From Bacteroidia bacterium (GTDB lineage Bacteria; Bacteroidota; Bacteroidia; UBA4408): a stretch of DNA of 64,000 nt. Location of the stretch: assembly GCA_044238735.1 (NCBI GenBank), contig JBIICS010000001.1, forward strand, positions 5,271 to 69,270. The letters are read 5' to 3'. The position numbers were made by a program, and so were the translations under genes. Below the pieces are notes generated by a model. It did no database searches. It was not told the origin of the DNA and saw only the letters and a program-made list of their open reading frames with translations. The number at the start of each line of letters is the position of its first letter. Positions within the stretch are counted from its first letter, which is position 1. Positions 3,212 through 61,061 of this stretch are shown one piece after another.

Positions 3212-3240
3212 AAAACCCCGAATCTCTTCGGGGTTCAAGG
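3211..3240. terminator. Bidirectional intrinsic terminator between convergent genes.
   Basis: The hairpin AACCCCGAA-tctc-TTCGGGGTT at 3214-3235 has an A-run on its 5' side, which is a U-run for the minus-strand gene, and T-rich sequence on its 3' side. Confidence 0.7.
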
Positions 3241-3241
3241 C

Positions 3242-4745: not shown

Positions 4746-5837
4746 ATGAGTTCAAACATTATTCGGTTTATTCCGCTTCAAAAAGAAAATCTCTTTCAAC
4801 GGATCTTTAATATTCGTCCCAAGCAAAATGCTTTTATAGAGGTAAATAATTTATTTGCAGCAAAATCTGTGTTTGAAATCTCGCCTGATGCTATCTCCGA
4901 AATTGCCAACCGATACAAGATAGATGTTTATAAAAAATTTTCCGATCAACTTAAAAAAATCTATGCTGATTATGTAAAATTCTGCTTAAATGATCACGTG
5001 GCGAATACAGAAGATCTTCATTTATTAAAACACTTGCGCGAGCTCTTATTGTTAAACGAAAAAGAAGTAAGCGAGATTTATCATCAACTGGCCTCAGAGA
5101 TTTATAAAAAGGAGTATAATGAAGCTATTGCTGATGGGCGTATGGATACGAATGATGATAAATCGTTAAAGTTTCTTCAAGAAAATTTATTACTACCCGA
5201 TAATCTTAAAAACAAAATTGATAATGAATGCCGGACTCTTTTTGTAAATAATTATTACACCAAAATAGTATCCGATCAACGTTTATCGCCCGATGAAATA
5301 AACGAGTTTGATGCTATCGCAAAAAGCCTGAACGCTACAGTGGTATTAGATGATACCTCCCGCGAATTATACAATAAGTTTAAATTATACTGGAATATAG
5401 AAAACGGAGTAATTCCTGCATTTGCGGTTGATCTTAATCTTCAAAAAAATGAGGTTTGTTATTATAAGGCGTATACAAGTTTTTACGAGCAACGTACGGT
5501 AACAAAAAGAATAAATTACGGTGGCCCAAGTTTAAGTATTAAAATTATGCGTGGCCTTTATTACAGAACGGGTAGTTACAAGGTTAATAAAGTTCAGGAA
5601 GAACAACTGGTAATGCTGGATAAAGGGTATGTTTATCTAACCAACAAACGTTTGTTGTTTGTAGGCGAAAAGAAGAATTCCACCTTGCGTTTAAATAGAA
5701 TTCTGGCTTTTACTCCTTACTCTAACGGATTAGAGATTGTAAAAGACAGTGGCCGAAATCCCTTCTATTTAATGGAATCGGATATTGATTTGTTCGCTAT
5801 GATTTTGTCGCGTGTTCTAAAAGATGATAATGGCTGA
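4746..5837 (+). CDS. Hypothetical protein with a helical N-terminal region and a C-terminal bacterial PH-like module.
   Basis: A 363-aa ORF with AT-rich upstream sequence. The C-terminus 'GYVYLTNKRLLFVGEKKNSTLRLNRI' resembles bPH-type domains. No catalytic motif was recognised. Confidence 0.5.
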   Translation: MSSNIIRFIPLQKENLFQRIFNIRPKQNAFIEVNNLFAAKSVFEISPDAISEIANRYKIDVYKKFSDQLKKIYADYVKFCLNDHVANTEDLHLLKHLRELLLLNEKEVSEIYHQLASEIYKKEYNEAIADGRMDTNDDKSLKFLQENLLLPDNLKNKIDNECRTLFVNNYYTKIVSDQRLSPDEINEFDAIAKSLNATVVLDDTSRELYNKFKLYWNIENGVIPAFAVDLNLQKNEVCYYKAYTSFYEQRTVTKRINYGGPSLSIKIMRGLYYRTGSYKVNKVQEEQLVMLDKGYVYLTNKRLLFVGEKKNSTLRLNRILAFTPYSNGLEIVKDSGRNPFYLMESDIDLFAMILSRVLKDDNG

Positions 5838-5875
5838 TTTTTAACTTTCATTCGATTAACTAATCCTAAACCCAT

Positions 5876-6256
5876 ATGAGAATAGATAAATGGTTATGGA
5901 CCATGAGGTTCTTTAAAACACGATCGTTAGCAACAGATTATTGTAACAGAGGTAGAGTAAAAATTAATACCAGCCTTGCAAAACCATCTCGAGAGATAAA
6001 GGCGGAAGACGTTATTTCAGTTGATCTAAAGTCTTATATAAGAACCTGTAAGATTTTGAAAGTTAATCCTGATCGCATTGCAGCAAAACTTTTACCTGAG
6101 TTTATACAAGATTTAACTCCAGAGAGCGAATATGCAAGAAGAAGTAAGATTGAAAAATTGAAACTTTACTATCTGGATGAAAAACCCAGCAAAAAAGACC
6201 GTAGAGATTTTGAGAAATTCTTGGAAGAAGAGTTTGGAGATGTGGATGAAGATTAA
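5876..6256 (+). CDS. hslR: S4-domain RNA-binding protein (Hsp15/HslR-like).
   Basis: 'MRIDKWLWTMRFFKTRSLATDYCNRGRVKIN' is the canonical S4 fold start. The C-terminus is rich in K/R/E. Confidence 0.7.
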   Translation: MRIDKWLWTMRFFKTRSLATDYCNRGRVKINTSLAKPSREIKAEDVISVDLKSYIRTCKILKVNPDRIAAKLLPEFIQDLTPESEYARRSKIEKLKLYYLDEKPSKKDRRDFEKFLEEEFGDVDED

Positions 6257-6792
6257 TCTAATTGTTTTACATTTTATTTAATGTAAACTAAGAAAATCAT
6301 TAAATCTTTTTGCTGGCTGAGCGGAGCCAAAGCCAGAGCTGTGCCAATAAACAAATAAACTCCTGAACTAAAAGAGATCCCGGACAGGGCATCAATTGAT
6401 CATTGAATATTAAATAGTATGTGCCCTTCCGGGAATCTCATAAAAGTGTAGATAGTAAAACTTGCCAACAGATCCCCGGCCGGAATGTAATGCAGAGCCG
6501 GTGTTTGTTATAAAGAGTTGAGCTAATAAATTAAATAAAGATTGCGGCTCGGATGCAGCAATTATTGATAGTATGGAGAACTAGAGTATAAAAAATAATG
6601 TCAGGCTGTGGTATCGAAGCCTTTTTAAATTACTCTTCCACTACCCTCCTACAAGCTCAGGGTGACAATGAAAGATAAACACGCCATCATCACTGGCCTG
6701 ACTTGGGATACATAAGTCCACTGTATATTTAATTTCAATACAGATTGGGGCTCGAGGGCAGCAATAACGAAACAATTGTTCTTAGCAAAGAA
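6257..6792. ncRNA. ORF-free, GC-enriched, hairpin-rich region; candidate structured non-coding RNA of unassigned family.
   Basis: The six-frame track shows no ORF of 60 aa or more. The region lies between the convergent 3' ends of two genes. A long imperfect hairpin pairs ATCCCGGACAGGGCA (6377-6391) with TGCCCTTCCGGGAAT (6422-6436). A CCGGCCGG palindrome is present. A direct repeat, AGATTG[C/G]GGCTCG..GCAGCAAT, occurs at 6539-6562 and 6742-6765. Confidence 0.3.
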
Positions 6793-7839
6793 CTATGTTA
6801 ATTTTCTATCGAAAATAACCTGGTTCTGCTTATTAATCGATTCGATATGAATTGCATCTAGAAAGTGAACAATAAATTCCTCCGATAAACCATGTTTCTT
6901 ACCTTTTGCAACATTTTCATTAATAATTTCCTGGAAGCGGTTAGGCTGTAAAATGGGCATGTTGTTTTCTTTTTTTAAACGACCAATATCTTCCGCAACC
7001 TTCATACGAGCTCCCAGCATTTGCATAATCTCATCATCCAGAAGATTAATCTGCTCACGCAACATCTTTAATTTATCTTGAACCGAAGTATTTAAAGAAG
7101 GTACTTTCCACTCTACTTTGCTTAATAATTCTTTTAACGCATCCGGTGTTATTTGTTGCTGAGCATCACTAAGAGCAACCTCCGGATTAATGTGCGTTTC
7201 AATCATCAATCCCTGATAATCCAAAGTTGCAGCTTTAGATGCTACATCAAGCAACCCATCACGTTTTCCTACTATATGGCTTACATCGCAAATCATCGGA
7301 TACTGGGGATGTCTAACCTTCATTTCAATAGGAATTTGCCATAACGGATTGTTTCGGTAACTGGAGTGATCATGCGTTTTGAAACCGCGATGTATTAATC
7401 CAATATCCTTAATGCCGCTTTTCTCTATTCGCTCTATTGCACCCTCCCACAGAGCCAGTTCGGGATGAGTTGGATTTTTAATATATACCGTTGCGTTGCT
7501 CCCTTTTAAAGCGTCAGCTATTTCCTGAACAGAAAAAGGATTAACGGTAGAACGGGCTCCAATCCACAACACGTCAACGCCATATTTTAAGGCAAGCTCC
7601 ACGTGCCCCGCATTAGCCACTTCGGTGGCGATTCTTAAACCTAAATCGTCCTTTACCTTCTTAAGCCAAACCAGGCCCTGTTCACCCATTCCTTCAAAAC
7701 TTCCTGGTTTTGTACGGGGTTTCCAAATTCCTGCTCTAAACAAAACCGACGAAGAGATTTCTTTAATCTTTCTTGCGGTAGTTAACATCTGCGTTTCCGA
7801 TTCTGCGCTGCAAGGACCGGCAATAATTACTTTTTCCAT
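6793..7839 (-). CDS. Bifunctional 3-deoxy-7-phosphoheptulonate (DAHP) synthase (class I-beta, KDO8PS-like) with a C-terminal chorismate mutase type II domain.
   Basis: The N-terminal 'VIIAGPCSAESETQ' TIM-barrel start matches Thermotoga-type DAHP synthase. The C-terminal 'LREQINLLDDEIMQMLGARMKVAEDIGRLK' is the AroQ chorismate mutase helix. Confidence 0.85.
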   Translation of the reverse strand: MEKVIIAGPCSAESETQMLTTARKIKEISSSVLFRAGIWKPRTKPGSFEGMGEQGLVWLKKVKDDLGLRIATEVANAGHVELALKYGVDVLWIGARSTVNPFSVQEIADALKGSNATVYIKNPTHPELALWEGAIERIEKSGIKDIGLIHRGFKTHDHSSYRNNPLWQIPIEMKVRHPQYPMICDVSHIVGKRDGLLDVASKAATLDYQGLMIETHINPEVALSDAQQQITPDALKELLSKVEWKVPSLNTSVQDKLKMLREQINLLDDEIMQMLGARMKVAEDIGRLKKENNMPILQPNRFQEIINENVAKGKKHGLSEEFIVHFLDAIHIESINKQNQVIFDRKLT

Positions 7840-8669: not shown

Positions 8670-8701
8670 GTTGTTTTAAAATTTAGTGTTAATATTCGTT
8701 C

Positions 8702-8727
8702 AAAAAAAAAGCCCCATTACTGGGGCT
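8702..8727 (-). terminator. Intrinsic terminator ending the minus-strand adhesin-locus transcript.
   Basis: The hairpin AGCCCCA-ttac-TGGGGCT is followed on the minus strand by a run of nine U (an A9 run on the plus strand). Confidence 0.65.
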
Positions 8728-8950
8728 TGAAATATCATAAAATCAAACTAGCCCCTAAATCGGAGTTTGGTAAAATAAAAAAAATAGTTGGCATTATTTA
8801 GGTAACTTGTAATCATGCTGCGAATATATTAAAATTTATATACTTCTAACTTACATTAAGGATTAACACAGCGTTTACTCTCTTCTTCTAATTAGGGCCT
8901 ATTTTAATCATTTACATTATTAATTATGAGTTTTACAAGTTTATAACTAT

Positions 8951-8965
8951 ATAATAAATAGGGCT
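8951..8965 (+). repeat. 15-mer ATAATAAATAGGGCT (containing the ATAAATAGGGC box), left border of the adhesin locus.
   Basis: An exact match to 19869-19883. It starts 2 bp beyond the stop codon of the 458-aa gene. Confidence 0.5.
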
Positions 8966-8966
8966 T

Positions 8967-16368: not shown

Positions 16369-16423
16369 GCTGTTTTTTGCTATATCACAAATTTGACGAT
16401 ACCATAATGAAAGAAAAAAGCAT

Positions 16424-16445
16424 AAATAGGGCGAATGCCCTATTT
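16424..16445. promoter_or_regulatory. Perfect 9-bp-stem hairpin AAATAGGGC-gaat-GCCCTATTT that contains a copy of the ATAAATAGGGC box, 56 bp upstream of the giant adhesin gene.
   Basis: The inverted repeat is visible directly in the sequence. It lies in the divergent promoter region between 16368 and 16954. Confidence 0.4.
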
Positions 16446-16953
16446 ATTTCTGAGAAAATTATTAGACCTTTGAGTGTTTAAAGGCCTCTCTGGTTGTTGT
16501 CTGCCTTAATTAAAGCGTGATTAAATTTTTGGTTCTACTATTAGTTAAAAAATGGCTTTTGGAAATACTTTGTGGTGTTTTTTTAGATTTACCTATCTAA
16601 CCTTTAAAATAGTATCCCCATTTATTACTAATTATAAATCCGATTTAAAACTAATGAAAAAAATATACTTTTGATTTATCTAAACCAATAAAAAATATTC
16701 AATTTATAATTTTGCAGTAAAGGTAAGTATTTACTAACTGTTTATACCTTTGTTTACCTTTTAAATACGTTCATATATCATACGAGATAATCTTTAATAT
16801 TTGACTATTAAATATGGCTATTTTAAATAAACATTTGATATTTTATAGACTATATGTGCTATAAATATAAATTAAAGAATAGGGCATATTTGCCCATATT
16901 AATTCGCTAAAAAAAAATAGGTCTGCTAAATTTGAATAAAAGCTATTAAACCA

Positions 16954-19872
16954 ATGAAACGATTATATATTGCTACCCTGTTAATGACCTTGAGCATAGC
17001 TTCGTTGGCTCAGGTTGTGATTAATGAAGTAATGCATAAACCAGGTCCAAACAATAACACGAACCAAGGTATTAGACGAAAAGAATATGTGGAGATATAC
17101 AATAAAGGGTGTTCTCCCGTTGATATCAGTTGTTGGGTGGTAGGTTCTGCCGGAATGGGTATTCAAACAGTGACTAATCCTTCTTATATAGGGGCCTTTC
17201 AGTTTCCTACCGGAACCATTATTAATCCAGGACAACACTTGGTTGTGGGTGGCACCGAAACTCAAAATAACACTGCATACAATGCCGCCGACATTGATTT
17301 TCAGGTGAGTCAGTTTTTAAACACCAACACCTGTGATCCTAATACCAACTGGCTTTTGCCTAATGGTGATGGTTGGATTGCTTTATATGACGACACCGGA
17401 ACTCCCGTTGATGCTGTTTATTGGTCGTTCAGCTCAACGGCTCCAAATTTGGCAACAGATGACGATTATGCATCAAACCCATGTGTTCCTTCCGCTTGTA
17501 GTGGTATCACCTCTTTAAGATCAGCCAGACAAATTATTGCTAATTTTCCAACCCGAATTTCATTTACAGGTTCCGCAACTTCAAACGATTTAACCTTTAG
17601 CAGACTTCCTGATGGGGGAACCTGGACGCGCAACGTAGCCCCAAGTATTGCTGGCTCTAACCAGTGTAATAGTGGACAATGCTCGAGTGCGCCCTCTTTT
17701 CAGCTTAGTTCTACCTCTACTGCTCCATCTTGTGGCGCCAGTAATGGAAGCATAAATCTAACGGCAAGTCCAACCGGGGGTGGTATTACTTACACCTATA
17801 CCTGGACACCTAACGTTTCCAGCTCATCATCTGCTTCAAATATTGCTTCGGGTACATATCAAATTAAAATTACTTCTTCAACCGGGTGTGAAAAAGACAC
17901 TAGTATAACTTTAACCAGCGGAAATGCTCCTTCCGCTATTGTTGTAAATCCTACCAACCCTTCTTGTGGTCAATCTAACGGAAGCATTAACTTAGGCGAT
18001 GTTACAGGCGGCGTAGGGCCTTATAATTATAGCTTAAATGGAGGTGCCTATTCTACTTTGCTTTCTTACCCTAACCTGGCTTCGGGCACCTACACACTTT
18101 CGGTAAGAGACTCTAACGGATGTATTTATAACGCGCCGGATGTTACTTTAAGTAACGGTTCGGGGCCAAGTGCCATCGCCACTACAATCTCTAATCCAAG
18201 CTGTGGACAAGCTAACGGGGCTATCAATTTAGGAACAGTAACCGGTGGTGTAGCGCCTTACACTTATAGCATTAATGGAGGTGCCTATTCTACTTTGCTT
18301 TCTTACCCTAACCTGGCTTCGGGCACCTACACACTTTCGGTAAGAGACGCTAACGGATGTATTTTTAATGCCCCTGATATCAATCTAACAAGCACTGCAG
18401 GACCAACTGCCGTAAACGTTACAACAGTGGATCCACAATGTGGACAATCTAACGGATCATTCACCGTTAATTCGGTAACTGGAGGATCCGGGCCATATCA
18501 GTACAGTGTTAATGGGGCAACGTATGTTAGTGGAGTTAGCACTTTTAATAATCTGGCAGCAGGGAGTTATAGTCTCGATATAAAGGATAACAACGGATGT
18601 ATTTATAATGCACCCGCTGTTAATATCAATAACTCTAATGCTCCTACTGCGGTTGCCGTTAATTTAACTCAGCCTACTTGTGGCTTAAGTAATGGAGAGG
18701 TAAATCTTGGGAATGTTACCGGAGGTACAGCGCCCTATAGTTATAATTTTAATGGACAAGGCAACAGTGGTAATTTCCAATACTCTGGGTTATCGGGGGG
18801 CAACTACAGTTTATCGGTTACAGATGCAGCGGGTTGTATCTATAATGCGCCAGCCATTATCTTAAATAGTAGCAATGCGCCAAGTGATATTTTGTACACC
18901 ATAACAAACGCAAAATGTGGTTCAAATAATGGCGCCATAAATATAACAAGCACAACAGGCGGTAGCGCTCCTTTCAATTATAGTTTAAACGGCGGACCTT
19001 CAACCTCAACATTATCCTACAGTAATCTTTCGGCTGGTAATTACTCTTTACAAGTTACTGATAACGGAGGGTGCACCTATATTGAAACCAACATAGTTGT
19101 AACCGTAACCCCGGCAATTACAAATATTATAAGCATTGTAACGAACTCAACCTGTTCTCAACCCAATGGCGCTATTGATATTAGTAATGTTCTAGGCGGA
19201 ACTCAGCCTTTTACTTATAACTTTAACAATGGAAGCCAATTTACCGCTCAAACCTCTTATGCCGGCCTCTCTGCCGGAAGTTATACCATTACTGCACAAG
19301 ACGCAAACTTGTGTTTATACACAGTAAGTGTAAGTGTTCAAAACGACAACAGTATTAATGGACCTCAACAACTTTTTACAACACTTACCCAAATTGAATG
19401 TGGAGCTAGTAATGGGGCAATAAAGATAGATTCGGTTAAAGGTGGCGTTTCACCTTATCAATATAAGTTTGAAAACAGCGTATACTCTTCTCAACTAATC
19501 TATGAAAACTTGCCTTCCGGAATTTATAACATCAGTATTAAAGATTCTAACAGTTGTGTTTTAGACACCATTGTGGTTATTCCAGAGAGCTTTGATGCCA
19601 GCGGTATATTTATTCCAAATGCTTTTACCCCAAACAATGATGCCTTTAATGCCAGCTGGGGACTTGAGGCAAACTGTGCAAAATCAGTTGAAGGTTATAT
19701 CTATAATAGATGGGGCGAAAAAATTGCTGACATTACAGATAAGGGTTTCCGCTGGGATGGAAAATATAAAAATCGTGAAGCTCCAATGGATGTATATGCT
19801 TATACTATTGAAATTACTTATTTATCCGAAAGAAAAGAGAAAAGATCAGGAGTGATTAGTTTGATAAGATAA
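16954..19872 (+). CDS. Second T9SS cargo adhesin with a lamin-tail domain, SprB-type repeats (10 or more) and a type-B (CHU_C) C-terminal domain.
   Basis: Signal peptide '..SLAQ'. Lamin-tail motif 'VINEVMHKPG...EYVEIYNKGCSPVDISCWVV'. The repeats have the form 'CGQSNGSINLG.VTGG..PY.YS.NGG.Y.....NL.SG.Y.L.V.D.NGCI'. The C-terminus is 'IPNAFTPNNDAFN...YNRWGEKI...WDGKY'. Confidence 0.85.
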   Translation: MKRLYIATLLMTLSIASLAQVVINEVMHKPGPNNNTNQGIRRKEYVEIYNKGCSPVDISCWVVGSAGMGIQTVTNPSYIGAFQFPTGTIINPGQHLVVGGTETQNNTAYNAADIDFQVSQFLNTNTCDPNTNWLLPNGDGWIALYDDTGTPVDAVYWSFSSTAPNLATDDDYASNPCVPSACSGITSLRSARQIIANFPTRISFTGSATSNDLTFSRLPDGGTWTRNVAPSIAGSNQCNSGQCSSAPSFQLSSTSTAPSCGASNGSINLTASPTGGGITYTYTWTPNVSSSSSASNIASGTYQIKITSSTGCEKDTSITLTSGNAPSAIVVNPTNPSCGQSNGSINLGDVTGGVGPYNYSLNGGAYSTLLSYPNLASGTYTLSVRDSNGCIYNAPDVTLSNGSGPSAIATTISNPSCGQANGAINLGTVTGGVAPYTYSINGGAYSTLLSYPNLASGTYTLSVRDANGCIFNAPDINLTSTAGPTAVNVTTVDPQCGQSNGSFTVNSVTGGSGPYQYSVNGATYVSGVSTFNNLAAGSYSLDIKDNNGCIYNAPAVNINNSNAPTAVAVNLTQPTCGLSNGEVNLGNVTGGTAPYSYNFNGQGNSGNFQYSGLSGGNYSLSVTDAAGCIYNAPAIILNSSNAPSDILYTITNAKCGSNNGAINITSTTGGSAPFNYSLNGGPSTSTLSYSNLSAGNYSLQVTDNGGCTYIETNIVVTVTPAITNIISIVTNSTCSQPNGAIDISNVLGGTQPFTYNFNNGSQFTAQTSYAGLSAGSYTITAQDANLCLYTVSVSVQNDNSINGPQQLFTTLTQIECGASNGAIKIDSVKGGVSPYQYKFENSVYSSQLIYENLPSGIYNISIKDSNSCVLDTIVVIPESFDASGIFIPNAFTPNNDAFNASWGLEANCAKSVEGYIYNRWGEKIADITDKGFRWDGKYKNREAPMDVYAYTIEITYLSERKEKRSGVISLIR

Positions 19873-20033: not shown

Positions 20034-20058
20034 GGTCGCCTTGGCGGCCTTTTTTTTT
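20034..20058 (+). terminator. Intrinsic terminator downstream of the second SprB-repeat gene.
   Basis: GGTCGC-cttg-GCGGCC, with one G.U pair in the stem, followed by T9. Confidence 0.65.
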
Positions 20059-20108
20059 GCGATTAGTAAGCCTTTAGAAGATAGAAATAATGTGCAGGAT
20101 GGCTATTT

Positions 20109-40024: not shown

Positions 40025-40040
40025 TCTTGTATGCATGCAT

Positions 40041-40075
40041 AAAAAACCCCGTTAAGACATAACGGGGTTTTTATA
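40041..40075. terminator. Bidirectional intrinsic terminator (thioesterase on the plus strand, rimK on the minus strand).
   Basis: CCCCGTTA-agacat-TAACGGGG flanked by A6 on the 5' side and T5 on the 3' side. Confidence 0.75.
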
Positions 40076-47322: not shown

Positions 47323-47403
47323 GTTTGATGCTTTAAAAATAAGAAATATTGGACTAAGTAACCGAAAAACACCAGTTTATTATATTAACTTTGAAAAATT
47401 TTT

Positions 47404-47475
47404 GGTCTTGTAGTATAATGGATATTACGTGGGTCTCCGGAACCCAAGATTCAGGTTCGATTCCTGACAAGATCA
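47404..47475 (+). tRNA. tRNA-Arg (anticodon CCG).
   Basis: The cloverleaf was folded by hand. The acceptor stem GGTCTTG/CAAGATC has one G.U pair. The anticodon stem is TGGGT/ACCCA and the anticodon loop is CT-CCG-GA. The T-arm is TCAGG-TTCGATT-CCTGA, and the discriminator is A. Confidence 0.8.
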
Positions 47476-47583
47476 CAATAAAATACAGTCTGATTGACCT
47501 TTTGATACTCGAGTATCTTTATAAATTTTAGTTAGGTTTTTAAAACAAGAAACGTGAATCCTGATAATCGCTTTATTGTTTTA

Positions 47584-51577: not shown

Positions 51578-52218
51578 TTTTCTAGATTTTTTTCAAATAT
51601 CAGTTAGGAATAATGATCTGTTTAATAAAATATACTAATACAATTAGCGAGTATACCATCACAATATTCTAACAATGGAACCAAAAGTTTCGTATAAATG
51701 TTTGTATATCAAAACATTAATGCTTTAGGAAAATTTTATCACGCAATTTTTATGGGCCCTAAATTATAAGTTAGATGAAGTAAATCCTCTTATTCGATTT
51801 ATAGCAACCAAAATTGAAGCCAGGATGCATAACCAAAATAAAAAAATTATGTTTCCCGTGGAACATTAAATTCTTACTTAAGGCAAGCCAAATTTTAAAA
51901 GGAGAATTCTTTAAACTGAAGTTATCGTAAGTATAAAAAATTTCGAGCAATAGATTTACTGCTATTGAGAGCTCTTAATCTAGTTTATCTCATATAAGTA
52001 TTTATTATAAATAGGCAATTAAAGATAATCCAATCTTCAGAGAAAATATCCATGACTTTGAAAATCTATATTTTTGAAATTTTGTATCAATTATTTAAAA
52101 GTATATTTTTTTAAAATCCTAATGCGTTTTGCTATAATAATTAGCTAAAGAACGTGGTAAAAAGATTAAATAAAAAATAAATGGTTATAACCATCATGCA
52201 AGAAAAAGGACAGATAAA

Positions 52219-52232
52219 GTTTCACGTGAAAC
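52219..52232. promoter_or_regulatory. Perfect 14-bp palindrome GTTTCACGTGAAAC, copy 1; candidate transcription-factor operator.
   Basis: An exact self-complementary 14-mer. An identical copy lies 239 bp downstream. Confidence 0.5.
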
Positions 52233-52457
52233 AAGAAAATAGTTATAAAAAAAATTTCATTAGACTATGATAAGAGTAAGCCAAATTATGGCTATCTTTT
52301 AAATATAAATTTAAAAATTATTTAAACGTTTATTTTTGAGCCTAAAAAATTAATCCGAAAATAATGAAGTTCGAAGCTAAAAAGGATGCTGGGCAAGTTA
52401 GGTTTTTAACTATGAATATTTTATTATAGGTCTTAAAAAAACATTCTCATAAATTGT

Positions 52458-52471
52458 GTTTCACGTGAAAC
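52458..52471. promoter_or_regulatory. Perfect 14-bp palindrome GTTTCACGTGAAAC, copy 2.
   Basis: Identical to the copy at 52219-52232. Degenerate copies lie at 52655-52670 (GGTTCCACGTGAAAAA) and 51849-51866 (ATGTTTCCCGTGGAACAT). Confidence 0.5.
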
Positions 52472-52880
52472 TATGGAATCAATATATATGGTGAAACGAA
52501 TGTAAAGAATAATTAATGTGAAATAAACACAGATCGAGATTAAGATTCTTAGGGTCATCAATCAATAAGTAAATTAATCTAGATTTATAGACGGGTGTCT
52601 AAATACATAACGACTTTTGGATACGAAAAGAAATCAAGATAAAATACTTAAGCGGTTCCACGTGAAAAAATTATGATATCCGAAACAAGAATTAAATATA
52701 ATCGCGAAGCATTTCACGATAATATAATTGTACCAGGTTGTTTTAAATTAATATAAGGGTAAATAAACAAAGGCATCCGATCATTTATGGTTGAAGAGTA
52801 TTGGAGGTTATATAATTAAGGGCTCTTATTAAATTATAAAATAGAAGTTTTATAATTATAAATATTTATCCTAAATTAAA

Positions 52881-52888
52881 TACCTTTG
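52881..52888 (+). promoter_or_regulatory. Bacteroidetes sigma-A -7 box (TAnnTTTG) for mnmG.
   Basis: TACCTTTG ends 10 nt before the mnmG ATG, which would give a near-leaderless transcript. Confidence 0.35.
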
Positions 52889-52898
52889 CACGAACGCT

Positions 52899-60497: not shown

Positions 60498-61061
60498 GAT
60501 ACTTTTTTTATTTTATTAATATAGTCAATTAAGTGCACTAAATATTTGTACTTATTAATTCCTAAATTTAATAATAAAGTAGTTATTAACTTTCAAAGCT
60601 TTTTTAATAAAATAAACATTTGTTTATCAATATATTAATATAAACATAAATAACAATTATAGTGTTAATAGTCGTTAATTGTATACAATAAGTGTTTAAG
60701 AAAAAATTATAATAAAATTTTAATTATCCATAGTATTATTTAATTGGTATTTTAAACTTATAAAACAAACAATTTTTTTAAATTATATAACACAATAATT
60801 AACACTATGGCACACAAATAAACAGTATAATCTAATAACTTTATTTTGTTAACATACTAATACTAACAAATGTTAATATAAACTCTAGTTTTTAGTTATA
60901 TCAAGCTTTTAATAAGAAATTTGCTGTTAATTAAATGTTATGTAAATAACAAAAGTCAAATATCAAAACATTTTTAAATAAAAAAACTTACAGTACTAAC
61001 ACACTAATAAATAATACATAATATTTAAATAATTAAATAAATTAATATATAATTTAGTTTT

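Follow-up and report, generated by a model that had tools for sequence, protein, structure and literature searches.

The window, that is, the whole stretch of 64,000 nucleotides that was analyzed, is a low-GC Bacteroidota fragment (35.1% G+C, or 0.351). Within it, the gene for an S4-domain/Hsp15-like RNA-binding protein (5876-6256, plus strand, 126 aa; Pfam PF01479; JGI name "ribosome-associated heat shock protein Hsp15") and the gene for a bifunctional DAHP synthase/chorismate mutase (6793-7839, minus strand, 348 aa; Pfam PF00793 and PF01817) converge on a gap of 536 bp (6257-6792). As stated in the original prediction, no ORF of 60 aa or more is found in the gap: the longest start-to-stop ORF has 44 aa, and the longest stop-free frame has 56 aa. 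In a crude ORF map, the convergent spacers elsewhere in the window measure 4, 30, 31, 55, 72, 167 and 236 bp. The earlier statement that they are shorter than ~60 bp does not hold for those of 72, 167 and 236 bp, but the 536-bp spacer is the longest, at more than twice the length of the next one. The G+C content of the gap (0.38, with a peak of 0.43) also exceeds that of all other non-coding gaps that are 40 bp or longer (0.12-0.35, crude ORF map), in agreement with the predicted enrichment over the surrounding intergenic DNA. The gap is therefore unusual in both its length and its G+C content when compared with other gaps. As a side observation, a 1321-bp gap was searched for DnaA boxes as a possible origin, and no cluster was detected.

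A long imperfect hairpin had been placed at 6377-6436. It was recovered at 6374-6439 (66 nt, hairpin A), with imperfect 18-nt arms (6374-6391 and 6422-6439) and an AT-rich loop of 30 nt. Its minimum free energy was -28.6 kcal/mol on the plus strand (z = -6.0) and -29.7 kcal/mol on the minus strand (z = -5.0), and none of 200 shuffled sequences was equally stable, so that the structure is well beyond chance. The arms of hairpin A are an inverted doublet of two small units, each with the layout ...GCCC-N4/5-GGG(A)AT-CTC, and on the minus strand the hairpin is followed by TTTTAGTT. The sequence of a CCC-GGAA-GGG tetraloop hairpin, listed earlier as an element in its own right, is present, but it is a piece of the 3′ arm of hairpin A, namely one of its two units, rather than a separate feature. 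The palindrome noted earlier, CCGGCCGG, was located at 6476-6483. Local folds at 6300-6365, 6455-6520, 6530-6575, 6595-6680 and 6733-6775 had z scores of +0.5 to -2.2, not clearly beyond those of shuffled sequences. The description of the gap as hairpin-rich was overstated, since only hairpin A clearly folds better than shuffled sequence. The region as a whole folds modestly better than shuffles (z = -2.85 and -2.74 on the two strands), and this probably owes much to hairpin A.

The direct repeat of ~24 nt reported at 6539 and 6742 proved to be longer than claimed. The two copies of this repeat (D1), at 6527-6562 and 6730-6765, extend over 36 nt with 81% identity, and the 24-nt D1 consensus has two matches in the window vs. 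0.00 expected. Read on the minus strand, copy 1 contains unit C (6539-6562), with ATTGCTGC-ATCCGA-GCCGCAAT-CT followed by TTATTTAATTT, and copy 2 contains unit D (6742-6765), with CGTT-ATTGCTGC-CCTCGA-GCCCCAAT-CT followed by GTATTGAAATT. From the DAHP synthase stop codon to the start of unit D, the distance is 28 nt. The stem of unit C (ATTGCTGC/GCCGCAAT) has one mismatch and a 6-nt loop, and that of unit D has two mismatches and folds weakly. Unit B (6469-6488, minus strand; AC-ATTCC-GGCCG-GGGAT-CTG, then GTTGGCAAGTTTTACT) is terminator-like, with a 5-bp stem that includes one G-U pair and a 5-nt loop, and its fold is not beyond that of shuffles. The arms of hairpin A provide units A-left (minus strand, GCCC-TGTC-CGGGAT-CTC) and A-right (plus strand, GCCC-TTCC-GGGAAT-CTC).

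These five spacer units have a common layout, with an ATT(G/C)C or (G/T)GCCC stem, a short loop, G(G/C)(A)AT and CT. Units A-left, B, C and D are oriented as the DAHP synthase gene and A-right is inverted; the long hairpin A is the result of this inversion. T-rich tracts lie 3′ of the minus-strand units (CTGTATTGAAATT for D, CTTTATTTAATTT for C, GTTGGCAAGTTTTACT for B and TTTTAGTT for A). The 3′ boundary of the units, SSRATCT, a motif that was defined post hoc, occurs 5 times in 536 bp vs. 42 times in 64 kb, a 14-fold excess. Module A (the 5′ arm and loop of hairpin A) can be aligned with unit C and its flank (…ATAGTATG), and this alignment suggests a local duplication. A tandem duplication with a 203-nt unit was also considered and was rejected, because extension past the 36-nt core adds almost no alignment score. 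Further unit copies were found neither in the 64-kb window outside the spacer nor in ~1.03 Mb of related loci.

JGI metagenome contigs were then scanned with the D1 core consensus, AGATTGNGGCTCGNNNGCAGCAAT. Besides this locus itself (in L113), the scan matched two high-GC contigs that are unrelated to it (L111 and L112), whose intergenic hairpins differ from unit C by 1 nt and 2 nt, respectively, and are nearly identical to unit D as well. With 20 specified bases and a very large database, about one chance match is expected, on a rough estimate of the database size. A chance origin of the L111 and L112 matches is unlikely, because both are intergenic and lie downstream of genes, both have extra bases in common (…GCAATGAC and a GTC tag), and the L111 match is the third in a cluster of three GATT[CG]C…G[GC]AATGAC hairpins between the apparent lipB and recJ genes (assigned by eye). 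Units C and D and the L111 and L112 hairpins align without gaps on the strand of the upstream gene, in the order (T/G)GTC, ATTGCTGC, CNCCGA, GCCGCAAT and CT. These segments represent an unpaired tag, the two arms of an 8-nt stem whose first pairs are A-T, the short loop between the arms, and a short tail. No covariation was observed among these four hairpins from three genomes, and the same mismatch is kept in all of them.

As described by Di Nocera et al. (2013; PMC3733652), REPs of the CGTC-tagged type have an unpaired CGTC tag (with the variants TGTC, which is frequent, and CCTC), an 8-9 bp stem starting with A-T pairs, a 4-5 nt loop and a tail that is short and unpaired. The same paper places them in five phyla, Bacteroidetes included, mostly between convergent or same-direction ORFs and near 3′ ends; the Neisseria members, the dRS3 repeats, form groups within large mosaic intergenic regions. 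The spacer hairpins fit this structure in part. They are small, and the 8-nt stem arms of units C and D open with A-T pairs, with one and two mismatches, respectively; unit B has a stem of 5 bp. Loops and unpaired tails are short. As with these REPs, the units adjoin the 3′ ends of convergent genes, with several units clustered in one long spacer. The position is also that of a REP: unit D lies in a convergent spacer, 28 nt past a stop codon, and the L111 and L112 copies are likewise downstream of genes. The L111 hairpins are tagged TGTC, and the L112 hairpin is tagged GGTC. In contrast, the units of the window have lost the tag (CGTT in D, AATA in C and TTAC in B), their loops have 5-6 nt rather than 4-5 nt, and the tail is CTN (CTT or CTG) instead of CCA. 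Moreover, CGTC-tagged REPs have many dispersed copies, whereas in the 64-kb window the unit copies are confined to this spacer.

BIMEs are the mosaic REP clusters of E. coli, and REPINs are the REP doublets of Pseudomonas that form hairpins; in families of both kinds, a genome carries tens to hundreds of copies, and the GTAG-type tag is conserved. Hairpin A, which consists of two inverted units plus a spacer, is like these elements, and so is the spacer as a whole, a mosaic of units with fixed orientations. Unlike them, the units of the window carry no GTAG-type tag, and a high copy number is not seen in the 64-kb window. The literature that matched the repeat sequence strings comprised primers and vectors only.

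The species has no GTDB representative genome, and the best relatives of its DAHP synthase are at most 57% identical. When the region was compared with 80 GTDB loci found via DAHP synthase, nhmmer and blastn returned chance matches only. Exact-protein look-ups recovered ~20 same-species contigs, from lake and other metagenomes, that are 98.8-100% identical across the locus, and closer relatives, among them L101, L102, L105 and L106, were obtained by protein searches. In the sister contig L105, whose S4 protein is 88% identical, the same two genes converge on a spacer of 27 bp, within which lies a perfect 11-bp hairpin (AATGAGGATTA..TAATCCTCATT). Its homology to the window breaks off at position 6216 and begins again at 6791, and window positions 6310-6790 are replaced by 35 bp. 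The L105 contig is a 975-bp mosaic, 81% identical on one side and 98-100% identical on the other. In L101 and L106 (82-85% protein identity, one sample), the S4 and DAHP synthase genes are on separate contigs and in different contexts.

Window positions 6154-6309 can be aligned with L101 positions 5300-5458 (74% identity over 160 nt), and the alignment ends 11 nt into the L101 DUF1801 ORF. The alignment with L101 and L102 shows that the acidic tail at the C terminus of the S4 protein, together with ~50 nt past it, is ancestral, and positions 6257-6309 represent the ancestral 3′ flank of the S4 gene, within which an AT-only hairpin is present (6264-6288). L105 is without the ancestral S4 tail, so the L105 state is a deletion or replacement and not an empty insertion site. 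Positions 6291-6307, which align with the first codons of the L101 DUF1801 gene, may be what is left of the 5′ end of a DUF1801 gene that was lost, and this alignment hints at a rearrangement junction. Homology to the closer relatives stops at 6309; the remaining segment, 6310-6790, gave no blastn match with them and is an orphan non-coding segment without a homolog outside the species. The region has no second copy in the rest of the 64-kb window and no match in phage and plasmid sequences (blastn) or in viral contigs (two pattern scans). An orthologous intergenic region, which had been proposed as a source of covariation, was sought and not found in the relatives, and the sister lineage is without the region. 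With no homologous sequence in relatives, an analysis of covariation is impossible.

The terminator scan flagged only 6480→6464 on the minus strand (unit B), with the tail AAGTTTTACT. By eye, a loose fit to a terminator was seen at 6603-6631 (plus strand), at hairpin A with TTTTAGTT (minus strand) and at unit C with CTTTATTTAATTT (minus strand). The hairpin at 6603-6631 (AGGCU..AGCCU, then UUUUAAAUU) was missed by the scan because its loop is longer than 8 nt; it is intrinsic-terminator-like, and it is the first canonical-looking terminator 3′ of the S4 gene. The canonical terminators of the window (3212-3241, 20040-20060 and 40040-40075) are compact G+C hairpins flanked by A and T tracts. The resemblance to intrinsic terminators, including the tandem or bidirectional ones of convergent genes, is a loose one: on the strand of the respective upstream gene, T-rich tracts lie 3′ of the spacer hairpins, but most of their stems are weak or mismatched, the T-tracts are interrupted, the loop of hairpin A has 30 nt, and five units in series over 400 bp go far beyond what termination needs.

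The -7 promoter box of Bacteroidetes is TAnnTTTG. Among its 62 occurrences in the window are one immediately 5′ of the tRNA (47386) and others immediately 5′ of several genes, and it is absent from both strands of 6257-6792, a result that applies to the consensus box. A sigma-70-type promoter scan of the region gave matches no more frequent than in shuffled sequences.

Comparison with L082, a haplotype of the same species, revealed 11 substitutions and 2 indels in the 536-bp gap vs. 9 substitutions in 1428 bp of flanking coding DNA. In L113, 8 events were found in 207 bp (6586-6792), when coding DNA differs by ~0.5% and the spacer at 8670-8966 by 2%. The right half of the gap varies ~7 times faster than coding DNA. 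In the left half (6257-6500), 2 events were observed in 244 bp in a single haplotype, L082, the sole hint of constraint; this low polymorphism and the stability of hairpin A could reflect selection. The DAHP synthase protein is unchanged in L082, so the 5 substitutions in its gene are synonymous, and since all 5 are synonymous the substitution rate of the gap is, as a rough estimate, close to the synonymous-site rate. Among the L082 substitutions in stems, 6505 U>C and 6540 G>A keep or improve pairing and that at 6422 breaks the apical pair of hairpin A, but three changes are too few to be informative.

A search with Rfam 15 at gathering thresholds yielded no match in the region, the sole gathering match being a tRNA-Arg at 47404. 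At E ≤ 10, all models that matched the region were eukaryotic (snoRNA, miRNA and lncRNA), with scores of 10-18 bits vs. thresholds of 43-90, and ARAGORN detected no tmRNA in it. The RNA-family check that had been recommended for the region thus returned nothing relevant at gathering or permissive thresholds, and the inspection by hand that had failed to find tmRNA, RNase P RNA, SRP RNA or 6S RNA is in agreement with Rfam (both thresholds) and ARAGORN. The idea of an unannotated structured RNA is not borne out: Rfam, ARAGORN, the relatives and the -7 box search provided no match, and one hairpin only is clearly beyond shuffles.

It is unlikely that the spacer gives rise to species-specific sRNAs, be they sibling or 3′UTR-derived sRNAs from minus-strand transcripts that end at the serial hairpin and T-tail modules, or convergent 3′UTRs that pair across ~6366-6631. 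Such RNAs would be in keeping with the very stable hairpin A (z -6), the folding of the whole region relative to shuffles (z -2.85 and -2.74), a G+C content that exceeds the intergenic background, the few polymorphisms of the left half, the L082 changes 6505 U>C and 6540 G>A that keep or improve stem pairing, and the terminator-like ends on both strands. However, the region has no Rfam match and no homolog in relatives, the sister lineage is without it, the -7 promoter box is absent from both strands, and the right half changes at least as fast as other spacers do. The folds besides hairpin A are within chance, and the four aligned hairpins from three genomes show the same mismatch and no covariation. 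The spacer is like loci of 3′UTR-derived or sibling sRNAs in lying downstream of a gene and in having repeated modules with terminator-like 3′ ends, and unlike them in having no conservation, no -7 promoter box and no seed-like conserved single-stranded stretch.

We also regard as very unlikely that REP-derived hairpins were co-opted as a species-specific RNA, either as minus-strand sibling or 3′UTR-derived sRNAs ending at repeat-derived terminators, or as a ~260-nt antisense 3′UTR overlap (~6366-6631) that would couple the Hsp15-like and aromatic amino-acid genes. If so, selection would lie behind both the great stability of hairpin A and the low polymorphism seen in 6257-6500. An RNA at this locus would be a regulatory RNA newly born from repeat elements; nothing that we found favors it.

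The spacer might instead be what remains, after decay, of one or more protein-coding genes that were lost as the S4 and DAHP synthase genes came to lie next to each other; this reading was examined at the coding level and is quite unlikely. The codon-usage log-odds score of the best of six frames was -0.07 to -0.13, within the range of other intergenic DNA (-0.18 ± 0.09; coding DNA, +0.21 ± 0.09), so that there is no residual coding signal in any of the six frames. Eight stop-free frames of the gap had no Pfam match, and a word-indexed protein search with all gap frames concatenated (5.8-billion-cluster search) found none. A full HMMER search of the 56-aa frame against 1.84 billion representative proteins returned three matches, a WD40-repeat protein and two other tandem-repeat proteins, which were rejected because the score is inflated by the repeats of the target, single stretches giving at most 28 bits. 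When the neighboring genes of the relatives and 3529 ORFs from all loci were used as tblastn queries, the best per-query E value was 1.7e-5, which is not significant after correction.

A remnant of this kind would have in its favor the near-coding G+C content of the gap, the somewhat long stop-free frames of the minus strand (56, 47, 46, 45 and 41 aa), the resemblance of 6291-6307 to the start of the DUF1801 gene that lies 3′ of the S4 gene in L101, and a gene order that varies among relatives, from which it follows that a rearrangement did occur at the S4/DAHP synthase junction. The translated searches, with no similarity to neighboring genes of relatives that survives correction, no Pfam match and no real match in either protein collection, together with the intergenic-like codon usage, argue against it. 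Two short ORFs were set aside as small proteins: the 44-aa ORF (6641-6775, minus strand) is broken by a 2-nt deletion (6682-6684) in natural haplotypes, and a 41-aa ORF that was called in L085 does not remain open in the window sequence.

That the spacer is a single inserted non-autonomous element (MITE) or a horizontally acquired fragment is highly improbable, for although the segment is present in this species and absent from the sister contig L105, has a G+C content slightly above the genome mean and is bounded by a weak inverted repeat (6291-6314 and 6784-6807, 71% complementary), the right arm of this edge repeat coincides with conserved coding sequence at the end of the DAHP synthase gene, the edges show no target-site duplication, no second copy exists in the 64-kb window, the phage, plasmid and viral collections gave no match, and in L105, which is also without the ancestral S4 tail, the site has undergone deletion or replacement and is not simply an empty one.

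On balance, and with modest confidence, we favor the interpretation that the spacer is young, species-specific non-coding DNA at a rearrangement junction, made up largely of a decayed REP/BIME-like mosaic and of terminator-like hairpins. The original prediction had left the choice between a non-coding RNA and a degraded repeat. The first part found no support, given the lack of an Rfam match, of a homolog and of a -7 promoter box and the near-neutral right half; the second is supported by the dispersed intergenic hairpins and the layout of CGTC-tagged REPs. We count these hairpins and this layout (PMC3733652) as a match to a repeat family rather than to an RNA model, the outcome that the prediction itself had named as speaking against a structured RNA. 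The REP-like label is suggested by the layout and by the L111 and L112 matches, for units that carry no CGTC tag and whose copies are confined to the spacer in the 64-kb window. The G+C content of 0.38 is above expectation for old drifting DNA in an AT-rich genome, and it counts against a reading as decayed repeats.

As a heuristic, it is reasonable to suspect a structured RNA in a GC-richer gap with hairpins when the genome is AT-rich; in the present case, such a gap would mark young repeat-derived junk at a rearrangement junction. The locus may serve as an example of REP-like palindromes in a low-GC freshwater Bacteroidota lineage, of how REP-like units can accumulate at convergent gene ends, and of how a sister lineage can swap the entire patch for one clean bidirectional terminator.

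For the young repeat-derived spacer, we propose that (i) the units would derive from a CGTC-tagged REP-type family and would have spread locally by duplication; (ii) the spacer would be no independent RNA gene, and any transcript of it would belong to the 3′ untranslated ends of both genes; (iii) on the minus strand, the hairpins and their T-rich tails may act as serial, partly redundant terminators or 3′-end stabilizers of the DAHP synthase transcript, and the hairpin at 6603-6631 may terminate the S4 transcript; and (iv) most of the spacer sequence is probably drifting and dispensable, because the sister lineage replaces it with a single perfect 11-bp bidirectional hairpin.

When the whole of L105, a metagenome contig of the sister lineage (L105:1-975), was compared with window positions 5695-7210, identity was found to be mosaic along its length. 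The side carrying the S4/Hsp15-like gene is 81% identical to the window, the final 120 nt of the DAHP synthase gene are ∼92% identical, and the next 300 nt are 100% identical. This pattern reflects either recent recombination between the two lineages or chimeric metagenome assembly. At L105:480-560, the conserved acidic C-terminal tail (FLEEEFGD.DE) of the Hsp15-like protein is gone, and a perfect 11-bp bidirectional hairpin contains the new stop codon of the gene.

Three clustered TGTC-tagged hairpins are present at L111:1815-1960 in the unrelated high-GC metagenome contig, between genes that by eye appear to be lipB and recJ. They are of two types, GTCATTCC…GGAATCT (two copies) and GTCATTGC…GCAATCT (one copy), and one of the three differs from the window's repeat by a single base. 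This group is a REP-like cluster in an unrelated high-GC bacterium.

The nonsense translation of 56 aa, used as an HMMER query, matched a 5212-aa repeat protein with E = 2e-22, because HMMER added up 16 weak matches to the repeats of the target. Whole-sequence E-values are misleading when a short query meets a repetitive target.

At window 47386-47476, tRNA-Arg(CCG) has TAACTTTG upstream of it, which ends 10 nt from the gene; this site is a clean example of the Bacteroidetes -7 box in use in this genome. Three other long gaps in the window separate divergent genes. The AT-rich gap of 1321 bp at 51578-52898 (GC 0.26) has no ORF larger than 59 aa, searches of it for Rfam matches and for a DnaA-box cluster returned none, and the gene downstream looks mnmG/gidA-type by eye. 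The 564-bp gap at 60498-61061, of extremely low GC (0.15), contains two tandem repeats, both short and AT-rich, one at 60750-60800 and the other at 61019-61056. The third, of 585 bp (16369-16953), precedes a 972-aa gene and has four TAnnTTTG motifs on the + strand (16666, 16707, 16745 and 16927). Within that 972-aa ORF, a 237-nt tandem repeat of ∼2 copies with 75-81% identity (18013-18515) probably corresponds to a repeated protein domain.
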